A stretch of DNA of 64,000 nucleotides, taken from positions 1 to 64,000 of IMG/VR virus record IMGVR_UViG_3300045988_102159. One strand, 5' to 3'. A program made the translations under genes and the position numbers. This DNA is from a virus. This document shows, one piece after another, positions 4,463 to 57,135 of this stretch. The notes under the pieces were generated by a model, which was not told where the DNA came from, ran no database searches, and saw only the letters and a list, made by a program, of their open reading frames with translations. How positions within the stretch are numbered: position 1 is the stretch's first letter; each line of letters begins with the position of its first letter.

Positions 4463-5248
4463 ATGAATAAATCAGAGATGCTTACTTTTCTTGACAATAA
4501 GTTTCATAATTGTAATCCTGAATTCTTGAAATTGTCTCAGGTATATTTTGAAGATGAAGATGGTGACATATTTTGCGACTTCATTAAACAATTAGGAAAT
4601 AGTATGGGCGCAGATTGTGTTCATGGTGGATGTTCTAAATCTGTATTTCATTTTAATGAATTTGAAGATTATGTTTTTAAGATTCCTTATATCGGCTATG
4701 CATATATTGCAGATGAAGATACACAGTATTATAAGGATTGCGCAGAAGAAGAACGTGTACCTAGTTATTTTTGTTTCGATGATGTAACGCTGTATAAAAA
4801 CGCAAGTAATGATGGTCTTTATCCAGTAGACGCAAATGATTACTGCGCAGCAGAAGAATACATCTATCGAATGGCTCGTAAATACAAGGTTCATCAAATG
4901 CTTGCCAAAACTACGTTTCTTGGTTTTGTATGCGGCATTCCTGTATATGTTTCTGCAAATGCAGGAAAAACATATAGTCCTAAAAAGCAAAGCAATGAGA
5001 CTAGTAAGATTGCAAAAGACATGATTGATAAAAGCCGCAAAGAGCACAAAGATAGCTATAGTGAATTTTATACTACAGAGTGCGGCGTGTTTATTGAGAC
5101 ATATGGTCGCAAAGCAACTCAACGTTTTATTGATTTTCTTTATAAAGAAAAAATTTCAGATTTGCACAATGGCAACTATGGTTATGATGCTCTTGGCAAT
5201 TTGAAAATTATTGATTATTCAGGTTTCCATGACCTAGATGTTTTCTAA
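4463..5248 (+). CDS. putative protein-kinase-fold protein
   Basis: 261 aa with RBS gaaagga. Candidate catalytic loop DLHNGN followed by IIDYSG (DFG-like). Candidate VAIK-like lysine in YVFKIP. Confidence 0.35.
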   Translation: MNKSEMLTFLDNKFHNCNPEFLKLSQVYFEDEDGDIFCDFIKQLGNSMGADCVHGGCSKSVFHFNEFEDYVFKIPYIGYAYIADEDTQYYKDCAEEERVPSYFCFDDVTLYKNASNDGLYPVDANDYCAAEEYIYRMARKYKVHQMLAKTTFLGFVCGIPVYVSANAGKTYSPKKQSNETSKIAKDMIDKSRKEHKDSYSEFYTTECGVFIETYGRKATQRFIDFLYKEKISDLHNGNYGYDALGNLKIIDYSGFHDLDVF

Positions 5249-50864: not shown

Positions 50865-52217
50865 CTAAAATTCTACAATTGTTAAAGCGTTATCCGTGTA
50901 AGTTTTAGAAGTTTCAATGGCTTCTTTCTTTGCTGCTGCAATTGCTTCTGCACTAGCAGTTCCACCGGAACCTACGCTTGTATCAATATACTGCTTAATA
51001 GTAGTACCTTCGGCAATGTCACCGACTTTTTCAGAAAGAATAGTCTTTACTTGAGCAGCATCGACTTTAGTATTTAAATTCTCTTGGATGGGAGAAATTT
51101 GACTATCGGTATATGCTTTAGCTTGTTCAAGTGTCGTGGCATCTTGAGTGTCAGTATATGCTTTTGCATCTTCAAGAGCCTTTGCAGCGGCGCCTGCTTT
51201 TTCATAATTGGCAGCAAGACCGTCGGCATATTCTTTTGCGCTTATCAGAGTGACAGTATCTTTTTCAACAGCAGCGGCAATGGCGGCAGCTTGAGCCGCA
51301 TCTGCTTTCTTCTGTGCTTCTGCAATAGCGGCAGCTTGAGCGGCATCAGCCTTGGTTGTCGCATCAGCGGCAGCAGCGTCAACAGCATCTTGCTTGGCAG
51401 TTGTAACTTCATCTTTAGTCGCGTAACCAGAAAGGTCTACCTTGCTATCACCGATTTTTTCAAATTTCTTAACTTCGCCAGCTACAACGAGAATATATTC
51501 ATCATAATGGTCATCAACTGGAACCATATAGATAGTATTAGCATCAGCTTCATCGACAACAGGGAGAGCATCGACAATAGCGCGCTTTAAGTGGTCTGCT
51601 TTCGCAATAGCAGAAGCGATTGCAGTATCAGTTGCTTCTTTTGTATAAGCATCAGCAATGCCGTATCCAGCCAAAGTAGTTGCTTTATCAGCCTTGCCAG
51701 CGACAGTAGTATCTGTATATGCCTTTGCATCTGCAAGAGCTTTCTTTACAGAGCCTTCACCTTCACCGGTTAAGCTATCTAATTTAGCTTGAATGGCTTC
51801 AATGATTGCTTTAAGATTCTCAACTTGTTCAAAAATTACTTTGAAACCAGAACCGGTATAAATATATCCTTTGTTATCTGTAGTATTAATATAGATAACA
51901 CCTTGTTCTTGGTCGGTTTCTGGAAGAGCTTCTACTACCTTAACATACTCTTTTACCTTGGTTGGGTCAATTTCACCATCAATTCCAATAGGAGAAAGAT
52001 TAAAACCTGTACCCTCAGCTTTTGGTTGAAGCATATATGCTTTATACTTACCATCAACCAATGCGGTAATGACTTGACCGCCATAAGCAATAGCTGAATC
52101 TGCATAGGTCTGTGCGGCTGCTAGCGTCTCATGGACACTTGAAGCATCAAGTGGAAGAGCATTACCACGAGAATAGGCTTTTACAGCAACCAATAGTTTT
52201 GTGCTATCAATAGCCAT
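50865..52217 (-). CDS. Ala-rich coiled-coil fibre protein, paralog 2
   Basis: 450 aa, same central block and Ala/Lys/Asp heptads as the ORF at 49010. Confidence 0.6.
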   Translation of the reverse strand: MAIDSTKLLVAVKAYSRGNALPLDASSVHETLAAAQTYADSAIAYGGQVITALVDGKYKAYMLQPKAEGTGFNLSPIGIDGEIDPTKVKEYVKVVEALPETDQEQGVIYINTTDNKGYIYTGSGFKVIFEQVENLKAIIEAIQAKLDSLTGEGEGSVKKALADAKAYTDTTVAGKADKATTLAGYGIADAYTKEATDTAIASAIAKADHLKRAIVDALPVVDEADANTIYMVPVDDHYDEYILVVAGEVKKFEKIGDSKVDLSGYATKDEVTTAKQDAVDAAAADATTKADAAQAAAIAEAQKKADAAQAAAIAAAVEKDTVTLISAKEYADGLAANYEKAGAAAKALEDAKAYTDTQDATTLEQAKAYTDSQISPIQENLNTKVDAAQVKTILSEKVGDIAEGTTIKQYIDTSVGSGGTASAEAIAAAKKEAIETSKTYTDNALTIVEF

Positions 52218-54514: not shown

Positions 54515-54547
54515 TAAAAAAACGAGGGAAACATAAAGTTTCCCTCG
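54515..54547 (-). terminator. intrinsic terminator closing the tip-gene array
   Basis: On the minus strand, cgagggaaac-tttat-gtttccctcg followed by ttttttt. Confidence 0.75.
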
Positions 54548-54553
54548 AATAAA

Positions 54554-55030
54554 TTAAGCTGTACGTCTGTACATATTACAGGTGATGTATGCGGGGCGTG
54601 AATCCCAATATAACTCTTTTGTAACCATAACAGGATGTGATATAGAACCAACAGAACTTGCAATATTAGCATTACAACTATGGTTATATTGAGAATGTAC
54701 CTTTGTATCGTCTGCCAACTTAATAATATTATCAGTATATTTCTTTGAATTAGAAACATTCACAAAATTACATAATGATATATCTATGTCTGCATTCCAA
54801 GTTGGAACGATTGTGCCATACCAAGCACCATATACATACGAAAAGCCGATATTACCAGAAAAGCCACCAGTAGAATTCAGGGCATTGTTTTCACTAGAGG
54901 ATTGTAAAAATTTCCCATCAATCTTTTCCCAAGAGCCACCAACTGAATCTACTGGAGATACATCGCTAAAAGTAATATATACCGAACCAATAGGATAAAC
55001 AATGTCTAGGAGGTTAACAAAATTTGACAT
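54554..55030 (-). CDS. receptor-tip (tail-collar-like) paralog 5
   Basis: 158 aa: MSNFVNLLDIVYPIGSVYITFSDVSPVDSVGGSWEKI ... NMYRRTA. RBS aggagg. Confidence 0.7.
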   Translation of the reverse strand: MSNFVNLLDIVYPIGSVYITFSDVSPVDSVGGSWEKIDGKFLQSSSENNALNSTGGFSGNIGFSYVYGAWYGTIVPTWNADIDISLCNFVNVSNSKKYTDNIIKLADDTKVHSQYNHSCNANIASSVGSISHPVMVTKELYWDSRPAYITCNMYRRTA

Positions 55031-55054
55031 TATGCAACACCTCCTAGCATATAG

Positions 55055-55453
55055 CTAGGCTGTTCGGAAATAGATGTTAAAAGCCCTGTACTTTGGACGA
55101 TTGTCAAACGGCTTATAAGAATATTGCGCATCTTGGTTCTTGCCATCAGCAACGCGTGACACATCAAAACCATAAACACCGTTGCCCGGAGCAAAGAAAC
55201 TAATAGTTTTTGGTAATCCAAACGCGTCGCAAGTGCCGCCTGTAACCCAAACATTTGACGGCAGATTTGCGACAGAAAGTTTACCTTCATTTGTTCCACC
55301 TGTTGCACCGGGCGTTCCATTGCAAATGAAAGTGTCGCTGTCGAGCTTCGTCCATGTTCCACCAATTGAATCTGCTGGTGAGACTGAATTATTTGAGATA
55401 AATACTGACCCAACTGGGTAGACAATATCCAAGAGGTTAACGTAGTTAGACAT
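55055..55453 (-). CDS. receptor-tip (tail-collar-like) paralog 4
   Basis: 132 aa: MSNYVNLLDIVYPVGSVFISNNSVSPADSIGGTWTKL ... NIYFRTA. RBS gaggtgg. Confidence 0.7.
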   Translation of the reverse strand: MSNYVNLLDIVYPVGSVFISNNSVSPADSIGGTWTKLDSDTFICNGTPGATGGTNEGKLSVANLPSNVWVTGGTCDAFGLPKTISFFAPGNGVYGFDVSRVADGKNQDAQYSYKPFDNRPKYRAFNIYFRTA

Positions 55454-55471
55454 ACGCCACCTCGCTTAGAT

Positions 55472-55852
55472 TTAAGCGGTTCGATACCAGATGAAGCAAG
55501 TTGTGTAGGGCGGCAAGTTGTTGTGTGCTGCCCCCCCCCCTGTAAAGTTACCTTGATTGTCATTCGCTGATAAATAATTACTACTGCTATTAGAGCAGGT
55601 CACGCTAGAACCACCAAAAGCTGATGCCCATGTTGATACCCATAATCTATGATGATGATTAGGCATTTCATCAATAGTCAAGGTATGCGTTGCTTCGCCG
55701 CCAGTTTGATTTGCAGTATCAGCACCATAAAGGAATGTCTTAATCTGTGTCCATGTACCACCAATAAAATCAGCAGGTGATGTTGCATCCATGCTTTGAT
55801 AAATTGAGCCTACTGGATATACAATATCCAATAGGTTTACAAAATTACTCAT
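55472..55852 (-). CDS. receptor-tip (tail-collar-like) paralog 3, containing an in-frame G10 tract
   Basis: 126 aa: MSNFVNLLDIVYPVGSIYQS...GGEATHTLTIDEMPNHHH...FTGGGAAHNNLPPY...WYRTA. The GGG codons come from the homopolymer. Confidence 0.7.
   Translation of the reverse strand: MSNFVNLLDIVYPVGSIYQSMDATSPADFIGGTWTQIKTFLYGADTANQTGGEATHTLTIDEMPNHHHRLWVSTWASAFGGSSVTCSNSSSNYLSANDNQGNFTGGGAAHNNLPPYTTCFIWYRTA
55531..55540 (-). repeat. homopolymer C10 (G10 on the coding strand)
   Basis: Counted directly: ten consecutive C, inside paralog 3. Confidence 0.95.
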
Positions 55853-55896
55853 TTATATCCTTTCTAATTTAATAGAAAGAATATTATAAAATCTTC

Positions 55897-56352
55897 TTAG
55901 GCTGTTCTCTTATATACATTTATAGAATAGTGATATGGAATATGTTGCTGTTGGTCTGTTACAAAATTACCATTATCATCAATTCTCCAAGTATCTTTAG
56001 TCCACAAATTCCAACCAGAATCGCCGCCATCTGCTCCGCCATATGACAAGAATTGCCATGCGTTGCCAGTAGCAGCATTAGTGAGCCAAAAACCAATATT
56101 GGCGTATTGCGCCTTAGCACTATGCCAAGCAAAAACCTGGTGTTGATGGTCTGGAATGGCGAGCTTAGAAATCGTATCACTGCCAGAAAAACGCCCAGCT
56201 AAACTGTAAGTATCGCCACTTGCCGCAAGCAAGCAATTTTCAATTTGTTCCCAAGTTCCGCCGATAGAATCAGCAGGAGAAGTGGCATTGGTAGTAATAT
56301 AGATACTTCCAACTGGATAAATAATGTCAAGAAGATTTACAAAATTAGACAT
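55897..56352 (-). CDS. receptor-tip (tail-collar-like) paralog 2
   Basis: 151 aa: MSNFVNLLDIIYPVGSIYITTNATSPADSIGGTWEQI...PDHQHQ...NVYKRTA. Confidence 0.7.
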   Translation of the reverse strand: MSNFVNLLDIIYPVGSIYITTNATSPADSIGGTWEQIENCLLAASGDTYSLAGRFSGSDTISKLAIPDHQHQVFAWHSAKAQYANIGFWLTNAATGNAWQFLSYGGADGGDSGWNLWTKDTWRIDDNGNFVTDQQQHIPYHYSINVYKRTA

Positions 56353-56396
56353 GGCAAACCACCATGCCTAGAACAGCCATTGAAGAAGAAGCTACA

Positions 56397-56444
56397 TTAC
56401 TGTAGCCCCCCCCAATGACTGTGATTAGTCATTAAGTTTTTCAT
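56397..56444 (-). CDS. leader mini-ORF b (15 codons in the present phase)
   Basis: MKNLMTNHSHWGGLQ, RBS aaaggat. Homologous to mini-ORF a around M-x-N-H-(S/T)-x-x-G-G. Confidence 0.4.
   Translation of the reverse strand: MKNLMTNHSHWGGLQ
56406..56413 (-). repeat. homopolymer C8 (G8 on the coding strand)
   Basis: Counted directly: eight consecutive C, inside the mini-ORF upstream of paralog 2. Confidence 0.95.
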
Positions 56445-56487: not shown

Positions 56488-56886
56488 TTATGCGGTTCTA
56501 CGATACATATGAACTGTTATATATGGTGGCATATTATTATGAGCTTGGCTACCGCCCCTAACTGGATTCGCTGTTATATCCGTATTGCCACCGCCGCCTG
56601 AGACGCCGCCTATGCTATAACCTCCTGAATTGAAATTATAAGATACAGACCAGGCCCATACATTGTCTCTAAACTCGTGATGATGCGCAGGAATTTCATT
56701 AATAGTTAGCTTGTGCGTTTCTTCGCCACCAGTAATACCAGTGGTACCAGCAGAGCCATACAAGAAAGTATTTTCTAATAATTCCCATGTGCCGCCAATA
56801 ACATCTGTCGGAGACGTTTCATTGAATGTTATATATACGCTGCCAACTGGATATATGATATCAAGCAGATTTACAAAATTACTCAT
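56488..56886 (-). CDS. receptor-tip (tail-collar-like) paralog 1
   Basis: 132 aa: MSNFVNLLDIIYPVGSVYITFNETSPTDVIGGTWELL...GGEETHKLTINEIPAHHH...AHNNMPPY...MYRRTA. RBS aggagg. Confidence 0.7.
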   Translation of the reverse strand: MSNFVNLLDIIYPVGSVYITFNETSPTDVIGGTWELLENTFLYGSAGTTGITGGEETHKLTINEIPAHHHEFRDNVWAWSVSYNFNSGGYSIGGVSGGGGNTDITANPVRGGSQAHNNMPPYITVHMYRRTA

Positions 56887-56909: not shown

Positions 56910-56966
56910 TTAACTAAGAGGAATGCCCCCCCCCAGAAGAGTATGATTCTTCATGGTATCTAACAT
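56910..56966 (-). CDS. leader mini-ORF a (18 codons in the present phase)
   Basis: MLDTMKNHTLLGGGIPLS, RBS aaaggt. Confidence 0.4.
   Translation of the reverse strand: MLDTMKNHTLLGGGIPLS
56926..56934 (-). repeat. homopolymer C9 (G9 on the coding strand)
   Basis: Counted directly: nine consecutive C, inside the mini-ORF upstream of paralog 1. Confidence 0.95.
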
Positions 56967-57100
56967 CTTTAATTACCTTTCTTATATAATGTTAAATAAA
57001 ATTTTAATAATCTATTGGAAAAGCTCCGCAGAAATTAATTCATTAAACTTATTCACATAAAACTCCTTTTCTTTCTTAGAATTATATTCTATATCTATAT

Positions 57101-57135
57101 GAAAAAAGGGCAAAACCCATAATAGGATTTTGCCC
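57101..57135 (-). terminator. intrinsic terminator opening the tip-gene array
   Basis: On the minus strand, a gggcaaaa/ttttgccc stem followed by tttttt, immediately after the 509-aa fibre gene. Confidence 0.7.

Follow-up and report, generated by a model that had tools for sequence, protein, structure and literature searches.

A three-phase poly-G tract in a gut-phage array of gp10-like tip genes, with frames that end at downstream gene starts: a candidate contingency switch

Homopolymeric tracts that change length by slipped-strand mispairing underlie phase variation of surface genes in Campylobacter, Neisseria and Haemophilus. Experimental work on poly-G phase variation of phage receptor-binding proteins is, to our knowledge, confined to the Campylobacter Fletchervirus group; it reportedly goes back to Sorensen et al. 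in 2021. According to two reports that cite it (PMC11959909; bioRxiv 10.1101/2025.10.21.683753), poly-G tracts of 7–11 bases in receptor-binding genes give phase-variable Fletchervirus populations, and contingency loci have recently been described in phages T2 and T4 (bioRxiv 10.1101/2025.10.21.683753). Here, we analyze a 64,000-nucleotide (nt) stretch of viral DNA (IMG/VR record IMGVR_UViG_3300045988_102159, positions 1 to 64,000; hereafter the window, to which all coordinates refer). It carries five small tail-tip genes, P1 to P5, that resemble a domain of the T4 baseplate protein gp10, all on the minus strand. The third of them contains a run of ten G residues (G10), which we propose belongs to this known class of switch in a new lineage and habitat, with an added translational routing logic.

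Like the Fletchervirus loci, the array has G tracts of 7–11 bases in phage tail or receptor-binding genes, where a length change shifts the reading frame and would give mixed progeny. It differs in its lineage (a ~140-kb human-gut phage), in being built of five small free-standing tip genes plus leader mini-open reading frames (mini-ORFs) and in having OFF phases that end at downstream starts, one of them by way of a stop-free overlapping frame. With the bacterial and T2/T4 contingency loci it shares a simple-sequence repeat in or just upstream of a coding region that would give reversible, high-frequency frameshifts, but while classical loci are binary (ON versus truncated), here three frames are apparently used, and the effect is proposed to fall on neighbouring cistrons.

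Translation can also be coupled by termination-reinitiation at UAAUG or AUGA overlaps, as at trp-operon junctions and in RNA phages, calicivirus and influenza B. The array is similar in that stops lie at −2 (TAATG), at +5 (ATGNNTAA) or 18–24 nt before an ATG, and its ribosome-binding sites may likewise be sequestered, in predicted hairpins; it is unlike these systems in that a hypermutable DNA tract is proposed to choose which start receives the ribosome. The invertible tail-fibre segments of phages Mu (Gin) and P1 (Cin) and the diversity-generating retroelement of Bordetella phage BPP-1 are likewise phage-encoded, stochastic devices that alter the distal, receptor-binding part of the tail fibre within a population, but they act by site-specific inversion or mutagenic retrohoming rather than by homopolymer slippage and translational routing, and no invertase, inverted repeats or reverse transcriptase was seen next to the array. 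In a literature search, no paper was found that links phase variation to translational coupling, leader mini-ORFs or a stop-free conduit frame.

To obtain the product of each phase, we edited the length of the tract, which sits 22 codons before the end of P3, in silico. With G10, as sequenced, and equally with G7 or G13 (phase 0), the product is the P3 protein of 126 amino acids (aa), which ends in FTGGGAAHNNLPPYTTCFIWYRTA and whose stop (55474–55472) lies 18 nt before the P4 ATG (55453). With G11 or G8 (phase +2), the product is 135 aa long, carries the tail GGGGSTQQLAALHNLLHLVSNRLNLSEVAYV and stops at the TAA at 55448–55446, which occupies positions +6 to +8 of the P4 start, ATGTCTAA. With G9 or G12 (phase +1), the frame stays open over all of P4, giving 273–274 aa, and stops at 55032–55030, in a TAATG that overlaps the P5 ATG. 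A sequence-only reading of the window had described these outcomes (full-length P3 with G10, a 31-codon tail ending at the TAA of the P4 start with G11 and a frame open across P4 to the TAATG at P5 with G9), and the editing reproduced all three exactly. No phase stops early; the ends fall before the P4 start, in the P4 ATGTCTAA or in the P5 TAATG, i.e., at −21, +5 and −2 relative to the tip ATGs, and these positions within or near a downstream start are kept in relatives. A length change thus switches the P3 reading frame in silico, and OFF-phase alleles also occur naturally in relatives. Phase +2 replaces the C-terminal strand of P3, and both OFF phases lose this strand, which is conserved from T4 gp10 to the tips, so P3 should be non-functional in either.

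The whole 64 kb contains only three G or C runs longer than five nucleotides (G10, G9 and G8), all of which lie in the 2.5-kb tip operon with G on the coding strand. Off-frame stops, counted over 59 window ORFs (17,522 codons), have a density of 0.052 per codon in the +1 frame and 0.129 per codon in the +2 frame. None of the 59 ORFs has a longer open same-strand off-frame stretch than the 132 +1 codons over P4, the next being 96 codons, and from the window-wide densities we obtained P ~1.5e-4 for 166 open +1 codons and P ~0.014 for the 31-codon open +2 tail. The arrangement of the tract and the open frames is more than chance.

As read with G10, the +1 path appears as a 177-aa ORF at 55030–55563 with its own ATG (55563). 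We rejected it as a separate gene because it has no Shine-Dalgarno sequence and no family match and its peptide is not conserved. Two long antisense ORFs opposite real genes, at 4592–5122 (minus strand, 176 aa) and 51084–51590 (plus strand, 168 aa), look spurious and indicate that long opposite-strand ORFs arise by chance in this genome; the P4 alternative frame is unlike them because it lies on the same strand as the genes and is conserved.

Protein-guided scans of IMG/VR and metagenomes yielded dozens of related arrays, and the contigs that carry the closest of them reach ~147 kb (relatives are designated by L numbers below). Typical tips have 4–10 stops in the +1 frame and 8–23 in the +2 frame; most tips that follow a poly-G P3 at a taaatctaagcgaggtggcgtATGTCTAAC junction have no +1 stop at all. 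The sequence-only reading had named stops in the alternative frame of relatives as a possible refutation. In the classes listed as stop-free (P4-type, L095/L096 and L098-type), 17 distinct sequences follow a poly-G P3; 15 of them have no such stop, and the other two (L086 and L102) have one each. The mean in the other 98 tips is 5.8. When synonymous codons were resampled with the codon usage of the family, 4.4–5.9 stops were expected per gene, and zero stops had P = 0.0004–0.005 for each, values that are not independent because the sequences are related. On the strength of the resampling and of the 98 other tips, we rejected the idea that the frame is open because of amino-acid composition or codon usage.

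Could the open frames nevertheless be a coincidence or an artefact, the product of Met-Ser-Asn codons that create the TAA, one lucky open ancestor and homopolymer assembly errors? The relatives do share ancestry, yet four classes of P4 middle domain with 41–59% nucleotide identity are each stop-free, with P(0) = 0.12, 0.017, 0.012 and 0.052 and a joint probability of ~1e-6 if these highly diverged regions are independent. AGT-AAT and TCT-AAY necessarily give a TAA in the +2 frame; against this, P4 uses TCT and GTT where other tips use AGT and GTA, which removes the +1 stops at its 5′ end. Stops also appear once the context is lost: two P4-type tips that have recombined behind another upstream gene (L091, L093) each have two at their new ATGAGT...GTA 5′ end and one internally. 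Illumina assemblies can miscount long G runs, but the tracts keep their positions across dozens of independent assemblies. We regard coincidence as extremely unlikely.

We then considered what the +1 frame encodes. P4 orthologues differ mainly at codon position 3 of P4 (e.g., 10/12/56 by position), so that the +1 peptide changes freely: it differs at 44–58 of 128 residues where P4 differs at 12–17 (58 versus 17 in the 10/12/56 example). The peptide had no match in Pfam or PHROG and is unrelated between the P4 middle-domain classes. A search of 5.8 billion proteins with the alternative peptide returned 19 clusters of 267–291 aa that are the exact fusion of the P3 N-terminal part with the alternative P4 frame; all 19 cover the query fully and end in AQPSYxLGGVA, which corresponds to the P5 Shine-Dalgarno sequence plus TAATG. 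That the ORF is conserved as open, and that the fusion is the consensus in at least six assemblies, including a contig at 130× coverage, as well as in these 19 clusters, would fit true dual coding, in which the G9 phase yields a functional protein with an alternative C-terminal domain. Such a fusion would, however, be without the conserved C-terminal strand of the Gp10_C fold and would end in a peptide with no family match that differs at far more residues than P4. We consider dual coding very improbable, and a functional alternative C-terminal domain was rejected because the peptide is free of the constraint that dual coding implies. Whether the long frame encodes a domain, which the sequence-only reading had left open, is thereby answered in the negative. 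As the +1 peptide is not conserved, the frame is apparently kept open as a path for ribosomes rather than as a protein domain; it appears to be selected to be open and not to encode.

Variation of the tract itself was assessed in the same relatives. The metagenome contigs with related arrays come from human gut wherever labelled, and the phage lineage is uncultured, ~140 kb in size and 36–40% GC. Each related array has 2–5 G tracts of 7–11 bases, always on the coding strand, which sit in leader mini-ORFs or inside tips, just before a conserved GGxxAHNNxPPY motif. Among 29 distinct P3-type genes, the orthologous P3 tract ranges from G6 to G11 and all three phases are found, in line with the tract-length heterogeneity that the sequence-only reading had proposed to look for. 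At the DNA level, 14 of these genes are ON, 8 are in phase +2 and 6 in phase +1, and 1 is unclassified; the 8 natural phase +2 genes share the endpoint at the P4 start, and the 6 phase +1 genes read through to the next-but-one tip. Identical flanks surround tracts of different length (e.g., ttgaatG(n)cagcac with n = 8, 9 and 11), and in pairwise alignments of close relatives small indels lie mostly in the poly-G tracts, the remainder being in short A/T runs. One relative in phase +1, L098, is a 141-kb contig at 130× coverage. The differing lengths and phases imply that tract length varies between samples and that each phase can be the majority state. Phase +1 is seen only in modules that are open to the P5 junction (6 of 15, versus 0 of 14 in the others; Fisher p = 0.017).

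These observations bear on a recoding explanation, according to which G10 is a slippery site and each infected cell, with a single genotype, obtains all three products through transcriptional slippage or ribosomal frameshifting, DNA length variation being secondary. A 10-G run allows perfect re-pairing of tRNA-Gly in all frames, and a design with three usable frames would also suit such a site. However, programmed sites are normally fixed in sequence, whereas near-identical genomes here differ in tract length, the length that gives ON is not conserved and relatives are in different DNA-level phases; neither length nor phase has the constancy of a fixed programmed frameshift or transcriptional slippage site. 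We therefore judge recoding to be improbable.

Several further observations concern tracts in the relatives. The P3 variant with ...KLNGGGAAHNN (L090, L096, L098–L101, L105) is ON in none of 7 assemblies (five are in phase +1 and two in phase +2), which suggests that populations with this variant mostly have P3 off or select against it. In a second family of gut-phage contigs (L022–L048, L071, positions ~6431 and ~7400; GC ~46%, most ~110–145 kb), a tip gene (MAIGDLNIAGGGGLEAYPIGSIY...) has a G7–G16 tract in its 5′ end, and many members also have a C7–C16 tract ~1 kb downstream. L135, a 27.7-kb contig binned in a Candidatus Coprovivens metagenome-assembled genome (MAG; GC 33%), has four G8–G10 tracts (599, 1131, 1468 and 1990), each 6–11 codons upstream of a tip-like YPxG motif, which represents another poly-G-controlled tip layout; the binning is a weak hint as to host. 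In L015, a G20 run (2936–2955) lies upstream of the tip array.

The endpoints seen at P3 recur elsewhere. Every surveyed poly-G tract near a tip start has at least one phase that stops at −2 (TAATG) or at +5 (ATGNNTAA), and in tips of the ...GGGQDY... class each of the two OFF phases reaches the next start, stopping at −2 in one case and at +5 in the other. Both alternative frames are open over the last 17 codons in 27 of 27 tips with a tract ahead of the HNNxPxY motif, compared to 1 of 20 tract-less tips with the motif, the tips being homologous and the comparison hence not independent. The P3-type gene of L002, whose tract is interrupted, has gained two +2 stops.

Ahead of P1 and P2, G9 and G8 tracts lie in two leader mini-ORFs. 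Leader 1 as sequenced stops 26 nt before the P1 ATG and with G8 or G11 would end at +6 to +8 of P1; leader 2 stops 47 nt before the P2 ATG and with G7 or G10 would end at +6 to +8 of P2. Each thus has one phase ending in the +6 to +8 register of the next tip ATG, as the sequence-only reading had noticed; across the leaders surveyed in these arrays, the other two phases stop 6–14 nt after the tract. Both leaders are predicted to fold strongly with the G tract itself as one arm (z = −3.6 for leader 1, z = −6.0 for leader 2). As sequenced, neither leader 1 (G9) nor leader 2 (G8) is in a delivering phase, while P3 is ON; as both leaders stop short of the tip start, P1 and P2 are predicted to be uncoupled in this genome. 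The tract-less mini-ORF that follows the terminator of the fibre gene directly is a remnant homologue of MNKFNELTSLGGG..., the poly-G leader found at the head of the array in relatives (L002, L006, L013). Poly-G leader mini-ORFs (e.g., MNNTFLGGGICPAR) are also found at L001 3927, L006 3592 and 4184 and L008 4632, where they directly follow fibre genes ending in ...KLWVQI and precede fibre-associated non-tip genes, indicating that the device is not limited to tips.

We also examined predicted secondary structure at the tip starts. The P3 Shine-Dalgarno sequence is predicted to lie in a 12-bp hairpin (55855–55884; z = −2.5), and that of P4, GAGGTGG (55457–55463), to pair with codons 6–7 (55433–55438; z = −2.8). 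The P5 hairpin has z = −3.6, none of 200 shuffles folding as well, and is predicted in 12 of 13 relatives; among the relatives' sequences of this hairpin, judged by eye, there were no compensatory pairs, only G-U and single changes. The hairpin at the P2 start (56346–56370, minus strand) is also terminator-like, with an 11-bp stem followed by ATTTTGT, and attenuation dependent on leader phase is conceivable at P2.

We lean towards the view that G10 is a hypermutable contingency tract whose length determines, through termination-reinitiation, which tips are translated. Slipped-strand mispairing while the phage DNA replicates would alter that length, and translation of each tip would depend mainly on the arrival of an upstream ribosome, which would open the hairpin and reinitiate. 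In phase 0 (G10), P3 would be on, along with P4 and P5; in phase +2 (G11 or G8), P3 would be off and P4 on, along with P5; and in phase +1 (G9 or G12), P3 would be off, P4 bypassed or occluded and P5 on. The poly-G leaders before P1 and P2 would act alike, bringing ribosomes to the tip start in one phase out of three, and the array would yield mixed progeny with differing receptor-binding tips, a form of bet-hedging. The stronger proposition, that the tract is a three-position ribosome router in which selection has shaped each frame so that it brings ribosomes to a different cistron start, including a conduit of ~130 stop-free codons under no peptide constraint, is one that we hold tentatively, at somewhat short of an even chance.

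The main rival is plain ON/OFF variation of P3 combined with insulation, in which open frames keep frameshifted ribosomes on the mRNA until the next cistron and so protect the messages of the downstream tips from polarity or decay; the output of P4 and of P5 would then be equal in every phase, and there would be no three-way routing. Insulation fits equally well with the open frames, with their ends at start codons and with the lack of constraint on the peptide. But if P4 initiated independently, its own ribosomes would already cover the message and a 132-codon stop-free +1 frame would be needless; +1 ribosomes must cross the P4 start, which would normally lower initiation there; and the natural +1 phase occurs only where the frame reaches the P5 start. 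On balance we think insulation unlikely, and rate recoding, a functional fusion and coincidence as less likely.

A number of observations weigh against routing by the tract, in addition to the shared ancestry behind the resampling P values. P4 and P5 have good Shine-Dalgarno sequences of their own and could initiate alone, as insulation would have it, and their dependence on upstream ribosomes is inferred from predicted hairpins that show no compensatory covariation. P5 is missing from L001, L003 and L097, and even so P4 has no +1 stops in them, which again fits insulation. Tips of the L006 class in the same position have 2–3 +1 stops and the L004 tip has 8; the L005 tip has 7, but it stands behind a tract-less P3. 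The stops in these L006-class and L004/L005-class modules mean that the conduit is not universal. Tract lengths are assembly consensus values that may err at homopolymers. Finally, how free-standing head domains of 126–158 aa would attach to the virion is a weak point.

The tip proteins share the N-terminus MSN[FY]VNLLDI[IV]YP[VI]GS, and each of the five scores above the Pfam PF21939 cut-off of 27 bits (33.6–77.2), the profile being that of the domain at the C-terminus of the T4 baseplate protein gp10. When compared with the gp10 structure 2FKK, the tip profile aligned from the N-terminal NxxDxxYP motif through the last residue. The tips thus match the T4 domain (PF21939; PDB 2FKK, 5HX2) end to end and have both its N-terminal NxxDxxYPxGxIY segment and its C-terminal N-x-x-PY...R-x-A strand; unlike gp10, they are stand-alone proteins of 126–158 aa, with six residues before the domain, in five tandem copies. 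Homology to the gp10 head domain and the context of tail-fibre genes make them putative receptor-binding tips.

Coordinates of the array are collected in Table 1. The hairpin that closes the upstream 509-aa fibre gene forms the 5′ boundary of the tip operon, and its sequence is kept ahead of the leaders in relatives. Such arrays evolve by cassette shuffling: whole tip cassettes of 402 and 544 nt have been gained or lost between L090 and L105 (aligned positions ~416 and ~2054), with breakpoints in conserved 5′ codons, and P5 has been deleted between the conserved 3′ ends (...RTA and stop) in L001, L003 and L097. A megablast search of GenBank phages with the array gave no match, and two scans of GTDB genomes gave no close prophage, the best tip relatives in them being 29–45% identical and mostly on Bacillota MAG contigs. 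The window also encodes a DNA polymerase with ~37% identity to SPbeta YorL. An Rfam search of the operon returned nothing above chance.

Table 1. Positions of the tip genes, leaders, tract, reading paths and hairpins in the window
Feature	Position	Strand	Description
Five paralogous tip genes, head to tail	Bounded by hairpins 57135–57108 and 54547–54523	−	Just 3′ of the 509-aa fibre gene
Intrinsic-terminator-like hairpin	57108..57135	−	11-bp stem, 6 GC pairs, T-run
Remnant leader mini-ORF, tract-less	57012..57056	−	GTG start; MNKFNELISAELFQ, then stop; right after fibre-gene terminator
Leader mini-ORF 1	56910..56966	−	MLDTMKNHTLLGGGIPLS, then stop; G9 tract at 56926–56934; has Shine-Dalgarno sequence
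Tip paralog 1 (P1)	56488..56886	−	132 aa, Gp10_C domain
Leader mini-ORF 2	56397..56444	−	MKNLMTNHSHWGGLQ, then stop; G8 tract at 56406–56413; has Shine-Dalgarno sequence
Tip paralog 2 (P2)	55897..56352	−	151 aa, Gp10_C domain; ATG inside 10-bp hairpin
Tip paralog 3 (P3)	55472..55852	−	126 aa, Gp10_C domain, HHH metal motif; holds G10 tract
G10 tract (C10 on plus strand)	55531..55540	−	Encodes GGG just before conserved C-terminal AHNNLPPY...RTA strand
Phase +2 path (G11/G8)	55446..55530	−	31-residue tail counted from the tract-encoded glycines; ends at TAA of P4 ATGTCTAA
Phase +1 path (G9/G12)	55030..55530	−	~168 codons across P3–P4 junction and whole of P4 to P5 TAATG
Tip paralog 4 (P4)	55055..55453	−	132 aa, Gp10_C domain; +1 frame without stop
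P5 hairpin (predicted)	55006..55047	−	Shine-Dalgarno sequence CUAGGAGGU paired with codons 6–9 (AACCUCCUAG); start codon in loop region
Tip paralog 5 (P5)	54554..55030	−	158 aa, Gp10_C domain; ATG overlaps stop of +1 path
Intrinsic-terminator-like hairpin closing the tip operon	54523..54547	−	

To the phages with poly-G switches, the array adds a family of human-gut phages of ~140 kb, abundant and uncultured, whose members carry whole arrays of them. Its frameshifted phases are apparently used rather than wasted, and an overlapping frame is seemingly conserved just for its openness, a stop-free frame of this kind being an unusual sign that selection acts on the traffic of ribosomes and not on a protein. 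If the contingency model is true, it would call for caution in gene callers and host-range predictors, as databases hold at least 19 clusters of 270-aa "fusion proteins," and it would explain how one phage genotype hedges among several host surface receptors. If the router is true as well, a single tract would choose among three receptor-binding tips, and the array with its leaders would give combinatorial virion diversity.

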